Assembly (NCBI RefSeq): GCF_016903815.1
Contig: NZ_CP069973.1
Source: Escherichia coli
GTDB taxonomy: Bacteria > Pseudomonadota > Gammaproteobacteria > Enterobacterales > Enterobacteriaceae
Reading direction: 5' to 3' (one strand)
DNA length: 64,000 bases
Shown here: positions 52,907 through 64,000 of the stretch, piece after piece
How positions within the stretch are numbered: the stretch's first letter is position 1
Layout: each line of letters begins with the position of its first letter
Notes under the pieces: generated by a model
The model's database searches: none
Told to the model about the DNA's origin: nothing
What the model saw: only the letters and a program-made list of their open reading frames with translations
Position numbers and translations under genes: made by a program

Positions 52907-53404
52907 TTAAGCCGGTACGCCGCCAGCGGTACGCCAGACGGTGACCAGTTTTTCCAGTGAATGCTCACGCTGACCGTAACCGGCACCCGGCAGGGACGCC
53001 CAGATATTGCGACAGCGTAAAATGGCGCGCTCAATGCGTCCCGCCCGGATGTCATCCAGTGCACCGCGTTCGCGGATCAACTGAATGGCGAGCCTGTCCT
53101 GTGACAACGGACTGAAATCCGGCAGGGCAAGCTGTTTGCGGTAGTGCGGCCAGAACAGGTAAAGCTGCTGATAGCGACCGGAGGCCGTGGATTTTTCACC
53201 GCGACGGTTAAACACCTTCGCCGGTCGGCCATGCGCGAACGGGTGGTCACTGTAGTCGGTGAAAATTTCCGGCTTCCCGTCCAGTCCGGTGACTATCACG
53301 TCATAGCCCCGGTTTTTCGTCAGCGGATGATTCGCCGTCCCTTCGGACACCGCCAGCATGTCGAGAAAGGCAGCGATATTCTGATGCGTGTTAATTACCG
53401 GCAT
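52907..53404 (-). CDS. K: Endolysin K (lysozyme-like)
   Basis: 165 aa, same as P2 gpK. Confidence 0.85.
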   Translation of the reverse strand: MPVINTHQNIAAFLDMLAVSEGTANHPLTKNRGYDVIVTGLDGKPEIFTDYSDHPFAHGRPAKVFNRRGEKSTASGRYQQLYLFWPHYRKQLALPDFSPLSQDRLAIQLIRERGALDDIRAGRIERAILRCRNIWASLPGAGYGQREHSLEKLVTVWRTAGGVPA

Positions 53405-53685
53405 TACGGTTTCCCCCTGCCCTTAAAGCGGCGCTGAATGGCAATCTCAATCACCTGATAACCGGCGATACCCAGCATGGAGCCGATGCCGCACACCGCA
53501 GGCAGTGACAGGTCAGGAAACTGCACCAGAACAACACCGGCAACCATCGAGACAAAACCACCGAGCAACATGCGCCCGATAAACAGACGCGGGGTGATGG
53601 GTTCACCACCGGCAAGCACCTTGCCGACAACAATCAGCACCCCAATCATGAAAAGCGACAGGACGCTTTTTTCTTCTGCTGTCAT
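53404..53685 (-). CDS. Y: Holin Y
   Basis: 93 aa with hydrophobic helices, same as P2 gpY. Confidence 0.85.
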   Translation of the reverse strand: MTAEEKSVLSLFMIGVLIVVGKVLAGGEPITPRLFIGRMLLGGFVSMVAGVVLVQFPDLSLPAVCGIGSMLGIAGYQVIEIAIQRRFKGRGKP

Positions 53686-57403: not shown

Positions 57404-59176
57404 ATGACCATCACCACAGACACCACTCTTTTACACGACCCGCGTCGTCAGGCGGCGCTGCTGTACTGGCAGGGGTTTTCCGTGCCGCAGATTGCCGCCA
57501 TGTTGCAGATGAAACGCCCGACGGTGCAGAGCTGGAAACAGCGCGACGGCTGGGACAGCGTTGCCCCCATCAGCCGTGTCGAAATGAGTCTGGAAGCGCG
57601 GCTGACCCAGCTCATCATCAAACCGCAGAAAACCGGCGGTGACTTCAAGGAAATTGACCTGCTGGGACGCCAGATTGAACGACTGGCACGGGTCAACCGT
57701 TACAGCCAGACCGGCAACGAGGCAGACCTTAATCCGAACGTCGCTAACCGCAACAAAGGCGGGCGGCGCAAACCGAAAAAGAATTTTTTCAGTGACGAGG
57801 CCATCGAAAAGCTGGAGCAGATTTTCTTTGAGCAGTCTTTCGACTATCAGTTGCACTGGTATCGCGCCGGGCTTGAGCACCGCATCCGCGATATCCTGAA
57901 ATCCCGCCAGATTGGCGCAACGTTTTATTTTTCCCGCGAGGCGCTGCTGCGCGCCCTGAAAACCGGTCATAACCAGATTTTTCTGTCGGCCAGTAAAACG
58001 CAGGCGTATGTGTTCCGCGAATACATCATCGCCTTTGCCCGGCTGGTTGACGTTGACCTGACCGGTGACCCGATTGTCCTGGGCAATAACGGCGCAAAAC
58101 TGATTTTTCTCGGCACCAACTCCAACACCGCACAGAGCCATAACGGCGACCTGTACGTCGACGAGATTTTCTGGATCCCGAATTTTCAGGTACTGCGTAA
58201 GGTGGCATCAGGTATGGCCTCACAGAGTCACCTGCGCTCGACCTATTTCTCCACCCCGTCCACGCTGGCGCACGACGCCTACCCGTTCTGGTCGGGTGAA
58301 CTGTTCAACCGGGGACGCGCCAGCGCCGCCGAACGCGTGGAAATCGACGTCAGTCATAACGCCCTTGCCGGTGGGCTTCTCTGTGCGGACGGCCAGTGGC
58401 GACAGATTGTCACCATTGAGGACGCCCTGAAAGGCGGCTGCACGCTGTTCGACATTGAGCAGCTCAAACGCGAAAACAGCGCCGACGATTTTAAAAACCT
58501 GTTCATGTGTGAATTTGTTGACGACAAGGCATCGGTGTTCCCGTTCGAGGAGCTGCAACGCTGCATGGTCGACACGCTGGAAGAATGGGAAGACTATGCA
58601 CCGTTTGCCGCCAATCCGTTCGGCTCCCGCCCGGTATGGATTGGTTACGACCCGTCACACCGTGGCGACAGCGCCGGATGCGTGGTGCTGGCACCGCCGG
58701 TGGTGGCCGGTGGCAAATTCAGAATACTTGAGCGTCACCAGTGGAAAGGCATGGACTTTGCCACCCAGGCTGAATCCATCCGCAAACTCACCGAAAAATA
58801 CAACGTCGAATACATCGGAATTGATGCCACCGGCCTCGGTGTCGGCGTGTTCCAGCTCGTGCGCTCGTTCTATCCCGCCGCGCGCGACATCCGCTACACG
58901 CCGGAAATGAAAACCGCAATGGTGCTCAAGGCCAAAGACGTTATCCGCCGTGGCTGTCTGGAATATGACGTCAGCGCCACCGACATCACCAGCTCGTTTA
59001 TGGCTATCCGCAAGACCATGACCAGCAGCGGACGCAGTGCCACCTATGAAGCCAGCCGCAGCGAGGAAGCCAGCCACGCCGACCTCGCCTGGGCGACCAT
59101 GCACGCCCTGTTAAATGAGCCACTCACCGCCGGTATCAGCACCCCGCTGACATCCACCATTCTGGAGTTTTACTGA
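57404..59176 (+). CDS. P: Terminase large (ATPase) subunit P
   Basis: Internal start MTITTDTTLLHDPRRQAALLYWQG gives 590 aa, as P2 gpP; divergent from O. Confidence 0.9.
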   Translation: MTITTDTTLLHDPRRQAALLYWQGFSVPQIAAMLQMKRPTVQSWKQRDGWDSVAPISRVEMSLEARLTQLIIKPQKTGGDFKEIDLLGRQIERLARVNRYSQTGNEADLNPNVANRNKGGRRKPKKNFFSDEAIEKLEQIFFEQSFDYQLHWYRAGLEHRIRDILKSRQIGATFYFSREALLRALKTGHNQIFLSASKTQAYVFREYIIAFARLVDVDLTGDPIVLGNNGAKLIFLGTNSNTAQSHNGDLYVDEIFWIPNFQVLRKVASGMASQSHLRSTYFSTPSTLAHDAYPFWSGELFNRGRASAAERVEIDVSHNALAGGLLCADGQWRQIVTIEDALKGGCTLFDIEQLKRENSADDFKNLFMCEFVDDKASVFPFEELQRCMVDTLEEWEDYAPFAANPFGSRPVWIGYDPSHRGDSAGCVVLAPPVVAGGKFRILERHQWKGMDFATQAESIRKLTEKYNVEYIGIDATGLGVGVFQLVRSFYPAARDIRYTPEMKTAMVLKAKDVIRRGCLEYDVSATDITSSFMAIRKTMTSSGRSATYEASRSEEASHADLAWATMHALLNEPLTAGISTPLTSTILEFY

Positions 59177-60210
59177 TGAGCAAGAAAAAAGGGAAAACAC
59201 CGCAACCTGCGGCAAAAACAATGACCGCCAGCGCCCCGAAAATGGAGGCATTCACCTTTGGTGAGCCGGTGCCGGTACTCGACCGCCGTGACATTCTGGA
59301 TTACGTTGAGTGCATCAGTAACGGCAGATGGTATGAGCCACCGGTCAGCTTTACCGGTCTGGCAAAAAGCCTGCGTGCTGCCGTGCATCACAGCTCACCG
59401 ATTTACGTCAAACGTAATATTCTGGCCTCGACATTTATCCCGCATCCGTGGCTTTCCCAGCAGGATTTCAGCCGCTTTGTGCTGGATTTTCTGGTGTTCG
59501 GTAATGCATTTCTGGAAAAGCGTTACAGCACCACCGGTAAGGTCATCAGACTGGAAATCTCACCGGCAAAATATACCCGCCGTGGCGTGGAGGAGGATGT
59601 TTACTGGTGGGTGCCGTCCTTCAACGAGCCGACAGCCTTCGCGCCCGGTTCCGTGTTTCACCTGCTGGAGCCGGATATTAATCAGGAGCTGTACGGCCTG
59701 CCGGAATATCTCAGCGCCCTTAACTCTGCCTGGCTGAATGAGTCGGCCACGCTGTTCCGCCGCAAGTATTACGAAAACGGCGCTCATGCCGGATACATCA
59801 TGTACGTCACTGATGCCGTGCAGGATCGCAACGATATCGAAATGCTTCGCGAAAACATGGTTAAGTCGAAAGGCCGCAATAACTTTAAAAATCTGTTTCT
59901 CTATGCCCCGCAGGGGAAAGCCGACGGCATTAAAATTATCCCGCTCAGTGAAGTGGCGACGAAGGACGATTTTTTTAATATCAAAAAAGCCAGCGCCGCA
60001 GACCTGCTGGACGCGCACCGCATCCCCTTTCAGTTGATGGGCGGCAAGCCGGAGAACGTCGGGTCGCTGGGTGATATTGAGAAAGTGGCAAAGGTCTTTG
60101 TCCGCAATGAGCTTATCCCGCTACAGGACAGGATCCGCGAGATAAACGGCTGGCTCGGTCAGGAGGTCATCCGCTTTAAAAACTACTCACTGGACACTGA
60201 CAACGACTGA
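59176..60210 (+). CDS. Q: Portal protein Q
   Basis: 344 aa, as P2 gpQ; start overlaps P stop. Confidence 0.9.
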   Translation: MSKKKGKTPQPAAKTMTASAPKMEAFTFGEPVPVLDRRDILDYVECISNGRWYEPPVSFTGLAKSLRAAVHHSSPIYVKRNILASTFIPHPWLSQQDFSRFVLDFLVFGNAFLEKRYSTTGKVIRLEISPAKYTRRGVEEDVYWWVPSFNEPTAFAPGSVFHLLEPDINQELYGLPEYLSALNSAWLNESATLFRRKYYENGAHAGYIMYVTDAVQDRNDIEMLRENMVKSKGRNNFKNLFLYAPQGKADGIKIIPLSEVATKDDFFNIKKASAADLLDAHRIPFQLMGGKPENVGSLGDIEKVAKVFVRNELIPLQDRIREINGWLGQEVIRFKNYSLDTDND

Positions 60211-60214
60211 ACAT

Positions 60215-60237
60215 CGCCGCCTGCGGGCGGCTTTTTT
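60215..60237 (+). terminator. Rho-independent terminator after Q
   Basis: cgccgcc tgcg ggcggc followed by tttttt. Confidence 0.7.
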
Positions 60238-60379
60238 ACATCCCGTCATCACGCCCTCACACGCTCACCACCGCACAAAACACCCCTTAGACACACCAAC
60301 GCCCCGACGCACAATCTAAACGCCATCACGACGCGCTCAGACGCTGAAAAAATAAAATCAGCACCACCGCCAGCGCGCA

Positions 60380-60398
60380 GTGCTTTCCCCGCCTCGCC
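60380..60398. other. P2 cos site (19-nt cohesive end)
   Basis: gtgctttccccgcctcgcc is the reverse complement of the P2 cohesive end GGCGAGGCGGGGAAAGCAC as recalled. Confidence 0.7.
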
Positions 60399-60596
60399 CG
60401 CCCGCTTCATGAGACGGTTTTGATGCAGTCGCATTTGTCTTGAAAACCAAGTAACTAGACGGCTATCAGTCATAGACAGGCAGCTTTTTTTTTCATACAT
60501 TTTGTATGCAAAATCATGCACGCCTAATCAAGACGAATCTTCGTTCACAGCCATTATGCATGAATGCGAAAATTACTGTTCGAAAAAGGATAATTT

Positions 60597-62021
60597 ATGG
60601 TTTCGTCAAACGTCAAAATAGCAGCATTTCCAGCAAAAAGATTCTTTGTTGAGATGCTCACCCGAGATATTGAGTTGTCTGACTCAATTCTAGATTTACT
60701 AGATAACTGCCTAGATGGTGTATTAAGAAAAAACAATTTCACTCCAGAGCAAACCTTCGGTAAATCAGACGTTTACAAGGGTTACTATGCTCATATTGAA
60801 TTTGATGAGAATAGTTTCAGAATAACTGATAATTGCGGAGGTATTCCAGCAAAACTTGCGGAAAGCTATGCGTTTAGGTTGGGTAGACCTGCAGAACGTG
60901 AGGCGGATGATCTCCCGACAATTGGTGTATATGGTATCGGAATGAAACGAGCGATTTTCAAAATGGGGACATCTGCTCAGATTTTAAGCAAAACTGAAAA
61001 CGAACAATTTTCAGTTACCATTTCTCCTGAATGGATGGCTGATGATGAAAACTGGTCTTTGGAGTTAGAGCGAAATAATGTTGACTTAAACGAAACAGGC
61101 GTCAGCATCCAAATTAACAATTTAAGGAAAGATATTAAAGCATCCCTATCAAAGGATCGTGGCTTTGAAGAAGTTTTGATTAATATCATAGCAAATCATT
61201 ATAGTTTAATCATTAAAAAAGGGTTTGAGGTTAAAGTAAATGGATGTATTGTTAAGCCAAATAGCACCAATTTAATATTTGATGAAGAAGCCATTAAAGG
61301 CAATACCGACGGCATTGCTCCTTATGTATATAAAAATAATTCAAATGGAGTTTCAATTAAAGTTGCAGTTGGATTTTATCGTAACTTGCCTAGTGAGGAA
61401 GAAGAAGAGAATTTATTATCAGGCCGTTCCACAACAGAAAAAGCTGGTTGGACAATTATATGCAATGATCGTGTAGTCCTACATGCGGATAAAACCAAGC
61501 TTACAGGTTGGGGAGAAGCTGGAGTTCCACAATATCATACTCAATTCATCGGAATTTCTGGTGTTGTTATTTTCACATCATCAAATGCTGAATTACTACC
61601 TATCACTACAACTAAACGAGGTGTTGATGGTAACTCTGAGCTATATCTTTCTACTAAAGATTTTATGCGCGAGGGTTTAAAATTCTTCACGGACTTTACC
61701 AACAAATGGAAAAGTAACGCAGAGGAAAGAAAGCAAATTATTAATACTGCATCCAATATGGTTTCAACAACTGAGGTCGACTTTACTAAATCAATTCCTA
61801 GAGAAAACTGGTCGAACGTTCGACGTTCAATAGGAGGAGAAGTTTTCAAACCGAAGCTACCAATGCCTCGGGATTCGGATCCATTACGTCAGATAAAATT
61901 TAGCCGTAGACATAGTGAAATAAAACTGGTGTCAGAGTTTCTCTTTGATGATGCAACTCAACCACCAACAGAGGTTGGTCAATATTGTTTTGATGAATTT
62001 CTAAAAAAGGCTAAACAATGA
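60597..62021 (+). CDS. GHKL-superfamily (Bergerat-fold) ATPase, cargo gene 1 of a two-gene operon
   Basis: 474 aa, AT-rich. GHKL motifs readable in order: N-box DLLDNCLDG, G1 box ITDNCGGIP, G2 box GVYGIGMKRAIF. SD aaggat 6 nt upstream of ATG. Confidence 0.75.
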   Translation: MVSSNVKIAAFPAKRFFVEMLTRDIELSDSILDLLDNCLDGVLRKNNFTPEQTFGKSDVYKGYYAHIEFDENSFRITDNCGGIPAKLAESYAFRLGRPAEREADDLPTIGVYGIGMKRAIFKMGTSAQILSKTENEQFSVTISPEWMADDENWSLELERNNVDLNETGVSIQINNLRKDIKASLSKDRGFEEVLINIIANHYSLIIKKGFEVKVNGCIVKPNSTNLIFDEEAIKGNTDGIAPYVYKNNSNGVSIKVAVGFYRNLPSEEEEENLLSGRSTTEKAGWTIICNDRVVLHADKTKLTGWGEAGVPQYHTQFIGISGVVIFTSSNAELLPITTTKRGVDGNSELYLSTKDFMREGLKFFTDFTNKWKSNAEERKQIINTASNMVSTTEVDFTKSIPRENWSNVRRSIGGEVFKPKLPMPRDSDPLRQIKFSRRHSEIKLVSEFLFDDATQPPTEVGQYCFDEFLKKAKQ

Positions 62022-63010
62022 GTACTGGCGGAAGCATCCCATATCATTTGCGGCAAAACAAAGCCATTGAAAGGAATCTATTTATAGAATCCCTAAGAAG
62101 GTTAAACAATTATACAAACATATCCGAATATGTATATATAGGATTCGGGGGGCCTTTCCTCGAAGATTTCAAACAAATTCATAATTTGTTAAAAGTGACT
62201 AAAATGATATCTATCGAAGGAGATAAAAATGTCCATTGCCGACAACAGTTTAACAAACCATTATCTTGCATAAATTTGGGTGATACCCCAGAAATGAGCG
62301 GAGACTTCATCAATCGCTATAACTTTGACGATAAAACGATCATATGGTTAGATTATGCAACGCCTTCAGACTTAAATGCTCAGTTAAATGAAATAGTTAA
62401 TTTGGTTACAAAGCTAAAACCCAAAGACATTTTTAAGATCACTTTAAATGCAAACCCTGAAGCCTTGGGAAAAAACCCGAGCGAACGAGATCCAAGAGCA
62501 TATAGATTTCAAAAGATAAACGATATTTTGACTCAAGATTTTTTACCACCGAATGCAGTAGTCGAAGATGTCGGATTTAAAAAATACCCTATGCTCCTAG
62601 TTAATGCTATGAGACGCGCAATAGGGCATGGATTAAAAGGTCGAAATGACATAAGAATACATCCATTAACTTCTTTCGTTTATAAAGATGGCCAACAGAT
62701 GGTTACTTTAACAGCTATCGTTCTTGAAAACACTGATACAGAAGAAGCTAAATTTATTGATAATTCCAGAATCAAGAATTGGCCATTTTATGATGGGAAG
62801 TGGAGTAATCCTAAAAATATAAACGTCCCTGCTATGTCTTTAAAAGAAAGGATACATATTGAATCTTTATTACCCGAAGCTTCAGTAGAAAACATCCATG
62901 AAACTCTAGGGTTTTACATTGGCTCCACTCCTTCTGGAGCCAACTCCGATCTAAGTAATTTTATCGAATACTACAAGGTCGTTCCATGGTATTCAAAGAT
63001 TCTTTTTTAA
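62018..63010 (+). CDS. Hypothetical protein, cargo gene 2 (partner of the GHKL ATPase)
   Basis: 330 aa; start overlaps the upstream stop (ATGA), implying translational coupling. Gly-rich YIGFGGPF then ISIEGD and IIWLDYATPSD resemble a Rossmann-like nucleotide/SAM-binding fold only loosely. Confidence 0.65.
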   Translation: MSTGGSIPYHLRQNKAIERNLFIESLRRLNNYTNISEYVYIGFGGPFLEDFKQIHNLLKVTKMISIEGDKNVHCRQQFNKPLSCINLGDTPEMSGDFINRYNFDDKTIIWLDYATPSDLNAQLNEIVNLVTKLKPKDIFKITLNANPEALGKNPSERDPRAYRFQKINDILTQDFLPPNAVVEDVGFKKYPMLLVNAMRRAIGHGLKGRNDIRIHPLTSFVYKDGQQMVTLTAIVLENTDTEEAKFIDNSRIKNWPFYDGKWSNPKNINVPAMSLKERIHIESLLPEASVENIHETLGFYIGSTPSGANSDLSNFIEYYKVVPWYSKILF

Positions 63011-64000
63011 CTTTTAAACAGTAATCGTATAAAGGTAATAGCATAGCCTCAGCCACAAGCGGACTAACGCTATTACCTATCTGTCTAAAACTGTGCCACT
63101 TTGTAGGATGAAAACGGAACCAATCAGGAAACCCTTGTAACCTAGCTGCTTCACGAGGAGTTATCACCCTAGCTTGAGTAGGGTGAATTGGCCTAACGGC
63201 CTGATAACTCCCCTTGTCACTTCCTGTACCTGCTCTCAAAGTTGGACAAAAACCGTTAGGATTGAGTCGTTGTGATCTCGAAATCTTATCAGTTTCACCG
63301 AATGAAAGTTGTCTATATCTCCTGAGCACTTCCTCCGAATGAGCTGTACCTAAAAAGCCAGATACCAATCCTTTCTTTAAATTTTGAATGGATTCTGCAT
63401 CACCTACACCATTTGGTATATGTCCCCAAAGTCGCTCATAATAGTAACCATCTTTATCCATTTTTACTGAACGCCAGCCTTGCTCCTCTGTCTGCCACTC
63501 TTTTCTTATAGTTCGCGGTAATCCGTAGAGTGCATCTTTGACAAGAGTCTGCTCTATTATATTTTTAGGAAAAAAATCAGATTCTTTTAACTGATTAATA
63601 AAACCTCTTTTAAAACCCATGAAAAATATTCGTGTCCGTGTCGTAGGTGCTCCATAATTTGAAGCATTAACCCTTATTGGATGTAATAAACAATAGCCAT
63701 CTCTAACTAAAGAAAATGCTTCTTCTCTTACTGGATTATATTTCTCACCCATAATTCCTGGAACATTCTCTGCCAAAAAACAAATTGGAGATAACTCACT
63801 TACCAACCTAAAAAAATGAATATACAATTCATTTCTTGTATCATTGGCATTCCTTTTTCCAATGGTGCTAAATCCTTGGCAAGGTGGACCACCAATAACG
63901 CAATCAATGTCCTTTACAGCACATGCAGACAAAATATCTTTTGCTGTAAGCGAGCAGACATCCCGATGCAAATGTGTTGATTTTGGGAAGTTTAACTCAT
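62961..64000 (-). CDS. DNA (cytosine-5)-methyltransferase, C-terminal part in window (N-terminus beyond window end)
   Basis: m5C-MTase motifs: GGPPCQGFS (motif IV), FLAENVPG (motif VI), TTRTRIFF (motif VIII), IGNSVSP (motif X). Reading frame stays open past 63971 to the window edge, so motif I lies outside. Confidence 0.8.
   Translation of the reverse strand, partial: ELNFPKSTHLHRDVCSLTAKDILSACAVKDIDCVIGGPPCQGFSTIGKRNANDTRNELYIHFFRLVSELSPICFLAENVPGIMGEKYNPVREEAFSLVRDGYCLLHPIRVNASNYGAPTTRTRIFFMGFKRGFINQLKESDFFPKNIIEQTLVKDALYGLPRTIRKEWQTEEQGWRSVKMDKDGYYYERLWGHIPNGVGDAESIQNLKKGLVSGFLGTAHSEEVLRRYRQLSFGETDKISRSQRLNPNGFCPTLRAGTGSDKGSYQAVRPIHPTQARVITPREAARLQGFPDWFRFHPTKWHSFRQIGNSVSPLVAEAMLLPLYDYCLKVKKESLNTMERPCSIR

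Follow-up and report, generated by a model that had tools for sequence, protein, structure and literature searches.

A 50-bp tail-to-tail overlap between dcm and a PF20553 gene in a P2-like prophage cassette of Escherichia coli: probably a by-product of compaction

Gene content and genomic setting of the cassette

The window analysed here, a stretch of 64,000 nucleotides from the Escherichia coli contig NZ_CP069973.1 (assembly GCF_016903815.1), carries a three-gene cassette between the portal gene Q, which lies beside cos, and the replication gene A of a P2-like prophage, and this position makes it a member of the gpQ–gpA hotspot. One border of the hotspot is formed by gpQ, the P2-type portal protein (59176..60210, + strand), an ORF annotated as 'phage portal protein' in NZ_CP023820 (locus L001), an identical E. 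coli chromosome segment; the Pfam model Phage_portal was matched in homologous loci. A strong intrinsic-terminator-like hairpin, GCCGCC-TGCG-GGCGGC followed by T6 (60216..60231, + strand), ends the P–Q operon and is the sole GC-rich terminator-like site within 60100-64000.

The first gene of the plus-strand unit (60597..62021, +) encodes a MORC-like GHKL+S5 ATPase of 474 aa, and an ATGA stop/start overlap of 4 bp (62018..62021, +), also found in most homologous loci, couples it to the partner gene (62018..63010, +), whose 330-aa product belongs to PF20553 (Methyltransf_35) and has a class I SAM-methyltransferase fold. On the opposite strand lies dcm (62961..64000, −), for a C5 cytosine DNA methyltransferase of the Dcm family, whose C-terminal 345 codons lie within the window; the gene extends past the window edge to its start at window-equivalent 64112, the complete protein having 383 aa, and motif I (FSGVGG) falls outside the window. 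The GC content of the cargo is uniform over all three genes (33-41%, against 52-58% in the flanks), and the gene A beside the cassette is a pseudogene in its RefSeq context. The cassette is present at ≥99% identity in 45 of 5426 complete E. coli genomes and as a second allele in 3 more; the partner gene is split in one E. coli genome.

Identity of the encoded proteins

Dcm matches TIGR00675 with 131.9 bits (cut-off 100.65) and the PADLOC model MTase_II with an E value of 1e-84, and the full-length protein carries the motifs FSGVGG, PPCQGFS and GNSV, as a methyltransferase of Type II restriction–modification (R-M) systems does. The ATPase has the N-terminal Bergerat-fold ATP-binding domain of the GHKL proteins (HATPase_c_3, E 6e-8), with D36, N37, D78, G81, G82 and G113-G115 invariant in 49 sequences, and this domain is followed by an S5-fold transducer, the arrangement of a MORC-type module; K340 is invariant as well. 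The fold of the partner is Rossmann-like with seven strands, its motif I is glycine-rich and its strand 2 ends in an acidic residue, as in SAM-dependent methyltransferases, and the folds closest to it belong to RNA enzymes that methylate N or C (RsmD-like, Trm1, RlmI/RlmO); the database label 'O-methyltransferase' for this PF20553 protein is unsupported, and methyl transfer itself is predicted.

Neither the ATPase nor the partner matched any model in PADLOC-DB 2.0.0 or NCBIfam, both fall in PHROGs families of 'unknown function' only, and a PDB sequence search with the ATPase returned no match. The matches of Dcm in PADLOC-DB 2.0.0 are confined to the generic models MTase_II, DruM and DrmMII, and the cassette does not contain the signature proteins that would fit it to any anti-phage system catalogued there. 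No nuclease or toxin domain was recognisable in the ATPase or the partner by PADLOC, NCBIfam or fold comparison, and no cognate restriction endonuclease of a Type II R-M system was recognisable beside Dcm, the two other cassette proteins being a GHKL/MORC-like ATPase and a methyltransferase fold. Literature searches retrieved no publication text naming Methyltransf_35, PF20553, WP_029401227, WP_029401228 or WP_029401229.

Anatomy of the overlap

According to both the ORF list and the sequence, positions 62961-63010 are common to the two coding regions, which amounts to a tail-to-tail overlap of 50 bp, or 16 sense codons and a stop on each side. The stop of the partner ORF (62018-63010, +, 330 aa) is the TAA at 63008-63010, and that of the Dcm ORF, at 62963-62961, reads TAA on the minus strand; both stops lie where an earlier note on this DNA had placed them, and the same ends are given in the RefSeq/PGAP annotation of NZ_CP023820 (8819-9811, +, and 9762-10913, −). 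Stop codons are unaffected by the choice of start codon, so the overlap is not a gene-calling artefact. On the plus strand the 50 bp encode the conserved residues 315-330 of the partner and its stop, and on the minus strand they encode a non-conserved run-on tail of 16 residues of Dcm, VKKESLNTMERPCSIR, and its stop. Measured against the 64-kb window alone, which served as the baseline for convergent spacing, this is the most extreme of 11 convergent neighbour pairs (greedy ORF call), the others being spaced from +273 to +11 bp, plus one at -34 that involves a probably spurious ORF.

Origin of the overlap length and of the Dcm tail

The partner C-terminus, N-F-I-E-Y-Y-K-V-V-P-W-Y-S-K, is among the best-conserved parts of its family: F315 and P323 are invariant across 20 diverse partner sequences, and the Pfam PF20553 model extends to residue 328. 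On the Dcm side, the shortest of the system-linked relatives end 16-18 residues past motif X (GNSV), with a median of 22, against 34 residues in the E. coli, Klebsiella and Enterobacter proteins, and the surplus corresponds to the 16 overlapped codons, that is, to an antisense reading of the conserved partner C-terminus. Comparison with three diverged copies revealed 23 nucleotide differences in the overlap, 17 of them silent for the partner and none for Dcm; the tails encoded there are identical at 13-15 of 16 positions in the partner and at 6-12 of 16 in Dcm, despite an identity of 81-82% for Dcm as a whole protein. The junction of Trabulsiella is the same except for a 4-nt indel just past the partner stop, which shifts Dcm into another antisense frame; there the overlap measures 40 bp and the Dcm tail is unrelated, with the gene intact. 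Judged from these comparisons, the overlap-encoded Dcm residues are unconstrained.

The length of the overlap was addressed by synonymous recoding of the partner, with its amino-acid sequence and the antisense entry frame held fixed, and the first antisense stop fell at 16 codons in 76% of the trials and at 5 codons in the rest. An invariant Phe315 (TTY) followed by an A-initial codon gives TAA or TGA on the other strand. Given that most recodings stop at exactly 16 codons, the overlap length needs no selective explanation, and its use as a sign of selection is ruled out by the simulation. The constant 50 bp is fully accounted for by the conserved peptide of the partner, and what is left to explain is that the functional end of Dcm abuts the partner stop without a spacer or a stop codon of its own.

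Layout and inheritance across homologous loci

Homologous loci were collected by a scan of one genome per species (57 loci, ORFs labelled by phmmer), and layouts were counted over the 50 species-level loci with a complete partner gene. The loci span Proteobacteria, Cyanobacteria, Bacillota, Verrucomicrobiota, Planctomycetota, Latescibacterota and one archaeon, and the ATPase and partner genes are adjacent in every one of them. Of the 50 loci, 39 have a Dcm at most 6 kb away. In 19 of these it precedes the pair on the same strand (Dcm > ATPase > partner), which is the rule in the most distant phyla, and in 5 it follows the pair on the same strand; it is divergent in 2, directly convergent in 11, and convergent but behind a second GHKL gene in 2. 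No Dcm was present within 6 kb in the other 11 loci, which argues indirectly against obligatory toxicity of the pair; together with the methyltransferase fold of the partner, the MORC-like nature of the upstream ATPase and the lack of any nuclease or toxin domain in either, this leaves the label 'toxin-like', proposed earlier for the plus-strand unit, unsupported.

The spacings of the 11 directly convergent loci are -50, -40, -16, -11, -11, -11, -6, +6, +11, +33 and +86 bp. The identical 50-bp overlap is found in close relatives within P2-like prophages, including Klebsiella aerogenes and Enterobacter copies with a partner identity of 81-82% and the second E. coli allele, where identity has fallen to 65% for the partner and 63% for the ATPase. 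The persistence of exactly 50 bp although the proteins have diverged to that degree is an observation that speaks against a mere by-product, as does the fact that no more than 11 bp separate the stops in 9 of the 11 convergent loci, an unusual closeness that could reflect selection beyond compactness.

The convergent layouts do not group together in a rough neighbour-joining tree of the ATPase and partner but turn up in several subclades, each of which has a junction of its own. Because the layouts are plastic and the convergent junctions are scattered in this way, the overlap is, as far as these loci indicate, a junction specific to the Enterobacterales clade and not a property of the system. 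Conservation of the overlap in homologous loci, which the earlier note had proposed as a check, holds only within the Enterobacterales (-50 and -40), and its suggestion that the overlap is a possible route for reciprocal control is not supported, with other layouts elsewhere and an unconstrained Dcm tail.

The genes also occur in other settings. In Vibrio cholerae a Tn7-like element carries them as ATPase > partner > Dcm > second GHKL, and in the Pf inovirus PfAC20 all three are co-directional, the Dcm being regarded as an orphan methylase in the paper on that phage. On a Microvirga plasmid the ATPase–partner pair lies between an MmeI-like methylase gene and drmA/drmB, inside a DISARM locus, and in cyanobacteria the pair can lie, without Dcm, between ndhF and ndhD. 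A search for hidden methylases beside the Dcm-less cyanobacterial pairs found ndh, NRPS and unrelated genes as neighbours.

Divergence is correlated between the ATPase and partner (r=0.83) and also between Dcm and either of them (r=0.54-0.60; Mantel test, 0/2000 permutations). Vibrio-type loci carry a different Dcm subfamily, which travels together with a second GHKL gene, and in E. coli allele 2 the Dcm is conserved but stands beside an ATPase and partner that have diverged much further. To judge by these patterns, the cassette genes are co-inherited as a unit, with some shuffling. The proposal that the methyltransferase gene and the operon were acquired as one unit stands in that form, on the strength of the uniform GC content, the presence of Dcm in 39 of 50 loci and the correlated divergence (Mantel r=0.54, 0/2000); the overlap itself, which had been offered as its evidence, does not bear on it.

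Transcription signals at and around the junction

Two sigma-70-like promoter candidates, TAGACA-17-TACATT and TTCACA-18-TG-GAAAAT (60473..60573, + strand), precede the GHKL gene; they are consensus matches alone and are not enriched over shuffled sequences. A promoter-like TAGACA-16-TG-TAGAAT is present upstream of dcm at L001 10981-10954, just beyond the window. In E. coli allele 2, dcm starts 50 bp past the stop of gene A, and no terminator or promoter was matched in between; with nothing of the kind in the 50-bp gap, the P2 early operon of allele 2 probably ends with dcm.

No terminator-like site was found on either strand between or near the two stops, in agreement with the earlier statement that the junction leaves no room for one, and none was found in the spacers of two convergent relatives (L024 and L041). 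Rfam gave no match at E≤1 over 60200-64000, and the local folds near the junction are unremarkable, with no conserved RNA structure. Two candidate sites were considered and rejected. A GC-rich hairpin, GGCTCCA-N7-TGGAGCC (62921..62941), is located within the partner gene and would follow the dcm stop by about 20 nt on the minus strand; considered as a dcm terminator, it has no U tract, is absent in two of the compared loci (L005 and L013) and has folding z-scores of only -1.96 and -0.64. At the end of the partner gene (62966..63008, +), a weak AU-rich hairpin at 62966-62994 is followed by T6 at 63003-63008; it fails terminator criteria and, as an end signal for the partner gene, would be leaky at best.

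With no canonical terminator on either strand, the transcripts very probably interpenetrate, and complementary 3' ends together with some collision of RNA polymerases are likely, as far as can be read from the sequence. Owing to the strand composition of the cassette, the read-through RNAs from both sides have more C than G, which suits Rho, and Rho may act at this junction; in E. coli, Rho curbs untranslated antisense transcription. Nothing marks the 3' ends at the junction as a selected control element.

Interpretation of the overlap

The reading favoured here, to which we give a probability of roughly 70%, is that compaction at a rearrangement junction gave rise to the overlap as a by-product, with a run-on Dcm tail, and that the overlap is not a dedicated regulatory element. 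On this reading, the dcm of the Enterobacterales faces the partner gene in inverted orientation with zero spacer, and its conserved fold stops almost exactly where the partner stop codon lies. As no stop codon is available at that point, the dcm frame runs on through the antisense of the last 16 partner codons until halted by the TAA (or TGA) that Phe315 TTY and an A-initial codon make almost unavoidable. Purifying selection on the partner C-terminus is strong, and the 16-residue Dcm extension would simply mirror it and drift. The ATPase/partner unit and dcm may each be transcribed from its own promoter-like site, with the transcripts entering the antisense of the opposite gene and being ended by Rho or by collision of RNA polymerases, and some mutual dampening and short complementary 3' ends could follow as a side effect.

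Such dampening could instead be the function of the junction, in which case the convergent arrangement without a terminator would act as an excludon-like control device that sets the ratio of Dcm to ATPase/partner through collision of RNA polymerases and RNase III cleavage of the 3' duplex; in P2-like phages, dcm lies downstream of gene A on the strand of the early operon, and its product would be made first on entry and restrain the other unit. The lack of an intrinsic terminator on either strand, extending to convergent relatives that do have a spacer, the closeness of the stops in 9 of the 11 convergent loci, and the start of the allele 2 dcm 50 bp past the gene A stop with no terminator or promoter match between them would all fit such a device. 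Antisense or convergent-promoter control has precedents in the EcoRI, Eco29kI and SsoII R-M systems (PMC3141266, PMC12707154), and overlapping 3' transcription also has bacterial precedent (PMC3551857). Nevertheless, in half of the linked systems Dcm precedes the pair within a single operon, which indicates that the system needs no antisense arrangement, and neither the length nor the frame of the overlap is conserved, nor is there a conserved RNA structure or an Rfam match. The known antisense control of R-M genes works at promoters and 5' ends, not at 3' tails, and a need to restrain the partner unit is doubtful in view of the 11 loci of 50 without a nearby Dcm. On balance, a selected control device is unlikely.

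A more elaborate proposal, which should be seen as speculative and improbable, is that the cassette is a nuclease-free, methylation-guided defence system composed of the MORC-like ATPase, a PF20553 effector with a methyltransferase fold and a dedicated Dcm, for which the convergent overlap would be a timing or balance switch in P2-like phages. Upon entry, dcm at the end of the early operon would be the first to be read, its transcription running head-on into the ATPase/partner unit, and the effector would be released only after lysogeny had silenced the early promoter. Were this so, the junction would be part of an R-M-style 'methylase first' establishment circuit that dispenses with a C protein.

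It is very improbable that the 16-residue extension of Dcm has a function of its own, such as docking to the partner or ATPase, and that the overlap persists for the sake of this peptide. All the Enterobacterales copies examined do have the extension, with a recurring N-T at positions 6-7 and C at position 13, but the W-Y-S-K and E-Y-Y codons conserved in the partner on the opposite strand account for these residues; moreover, every substitution alters the tail, identity drops to 6 of 16, the Trabulsiella tail, from a frameshifted junction, is unrelated, and the relatives in all other layouts do without the extension. Equally hard to credit is a meaningless overlap in which one gene is dead or silent (a pseudogene, or AT-rich cargo silenced by H-NS) or the true stops lie elsewhere, since the AT-rich foreign DNA, the nearby gene A pseudogene and the one E. 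coli genome with a split partner gene are set against two full-length ORFs with intact catalytic or binding motifs, conservation across genera with mostly silent changes in the partner, identical copies in 45 genomes and unambiguous stop codons.

With the by-product reading, a striking 50-bp overlap is explained by one conserved C-terminus and a missing spacer, and it should not count as evidence for antisense regulation or for a toxin/antidote pair. A constrained overlap and a run-on tail can be told apart by three comparisons, namely the tail lengths of relatives, the silent changes in each frame and synonymous recoding. The cassette is of more interest than its overlap, as an uncharacterised, widespread and co-inherited combination of a MORC-like ATPase, a PF20553 protein and Dcm.

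Comparison with known systems

The arrangement resembles that of convergent Type II R-M pairs, in which a methylase on one strand and its partner genes on the other likewise converge within a single mobile cassette, leaving room for interference through convergent transcription; in those systems a restriction endonuclease is part of the set, whereas none is identifiable here. Antisense or convergent-promoter control of R-M genes, as with the reverse promoters of EcoRI and in Eco29kI and SsoII/Ecl18kI, acts at promoters or 5' ends and has been established from mapped transcripts (PMC3141266, PMC12707154). The cassette differs from these in that its overlap is a 3' coding overlap known from sequence alone.

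Excludons and overlapping 3'-UTR transcription, as in Listeria and Staphylococcus aureus, are defined from mapped long transcripts with reciprocal expression. The likeness to them consists in neighbours on opposite strands whose transcripts would be complementary if no terminator intervened, and the difference in that the overlap of the cassette is not conserved across homologous loci and is known from the genes alone.

[quoted passage not shown] The common element is a MORC-type GHKL+S5 ATPase linked to a C5 methylase on mobile DNA, but SF-II helicases or nucleases of the restriction-endonuclease-fold, HNH or Vsr type are typical members of the MORC/paraMORC operons, whereas the constant partner in the cassette is the PF20553 protein, which is described in neither PMC2292703 nor PMC8011034. 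A paper on GHKL defence in V. cholerae, considered as a relevant system, was set aside, as it concerns an unrelated Shedu fusion.

DISARM is connected to the cassette by the Microvirga ATPase–partner pair, whose location inside such a locus implies that the pair also travels with methylation-based defence; the window itself contains no DrmA, DrmB or DrmC, and the ATPase and partner have no PADLOC match.

As regards the insertion site, the cos-proximal gpA–gpQ cargo hotspot is occupied in P2 by tin and old (Rousset et al. 2022, PMC9122126), and WP_029401227, WP_029401228 and WP_029401229, exactly the three cassette proteins, are included in the hotspot-locus table of that paper, the cassette not being among the validated systems in its main text. 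As an uncharacterised set of genes with no recognisable nuclease, carried by P2-like prophages, Tn7-like elements and a filamentous phage and also found in a DISARM locus, the cassette is a reasonable candidate for defence-system screens. In P2 itself the units of tin and old likewise converge, one lying on the Q/P strand and the other on the A strand.

Architecture and divergence of the cassette

The cassette in the window (60597-64000, continuing to window-equivalent position 64112) comprises genes for a MORC-like GHKL ATPase, a PF20553 methyltransferase-fold protein as its partner, and a dedicated Dcm. The second, diverged E. coli version, allele 2 (L005-L008), is unequally related to this stretch, its ATPase and partner being 63% and 65% identical, respectively, to the window's proteins and its Dcm 81%; the corresponding values for K. 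aerogenes are 81-87% for all three cassette genes. Judged from these sequence identities, the discordant divergence of allele 2 points either to an exchange of modules at the tail-to-tail junction or to genes evolving at very unequal rates. In one allele-2 genome, E. coli GF43 (H25, NZ_CP172127), the cassette alignment is 1 base shorter than the query and the annotation splits the partner gene in two; the partner is likely inactivated by a frameshift in this strain. In the P2 lysis/tail region (53144-53685), the greedy ORF call also returned two convergent ORFs that seem to overlap by 34 bp; the RefSeq annotation contains minus-strand genes only there, and the plus-strand ORF is therefore probably spurious.

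The region upstream of dcm

In allele 2, only 50 bp separate the stop codon of replication gene A from the dcm start (L005, 8095-8148), and neither a terminator nor a promoter match is present in this gap; dcm therefore probably comes last in the P2 early operon there. By contrast, the window's allele carries a 294-bp spacer in this position, with its own promoter-like site (TAGACA-16-TG-TAGAAT), located outside the window on L001, an identical E. coli segment (NZ_CP023820) that reaches beyond the window's right end. At 10954-10991 of L001 (window-equivalent 64153-64190), this site overlaps a short inverted repeat, ATGAC-N4-GTCAT, which could be an operator serving, for example, methylase autoregulation. 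Gene A itself, which adjoins the cassette just past the window's right end (L001, 11208-13259), is a pseudogene in the annotation, with the C-terminus missing, so the prophage is probably replication-defective.

Distribution and relation to known systems

The three-gene unit (L009, L012-L063, L069 and L070) is widespread, with 57 species-level loci drawn from many phyla and one archaeon. It also travels on mobile elements, its settings being the P2 hotspot, a Tn7-like element, a Pf inovirus and a DISARM locus. In cyanobacterial loci L025-L028 and L030, the ATPase-partner pair has no Dcm within 6 kb, indicating that the pair can exist without an adjacent methylase; the neighbouring genes, examined in L025 and L030, encode NAD(P)H-quinone oxidoreductase subunits and, in L030, also an NRPS. 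Elsewhere (L009, L015, L016, L020-L022 and L031), the pair stands beside another GHKL protein of greater length (about 570-610 aa; HATPase_c_3 only) accompanied by a distinct Dcm subfamily, and these two may form a Dcm+GHKL module of their own within the shared locus. Since the three-gene unit matches none of the PADLOC models and no recognisable nuclease was found in it, it is regarded as an uncharacterised candidate for a defence or an epigenetic system.
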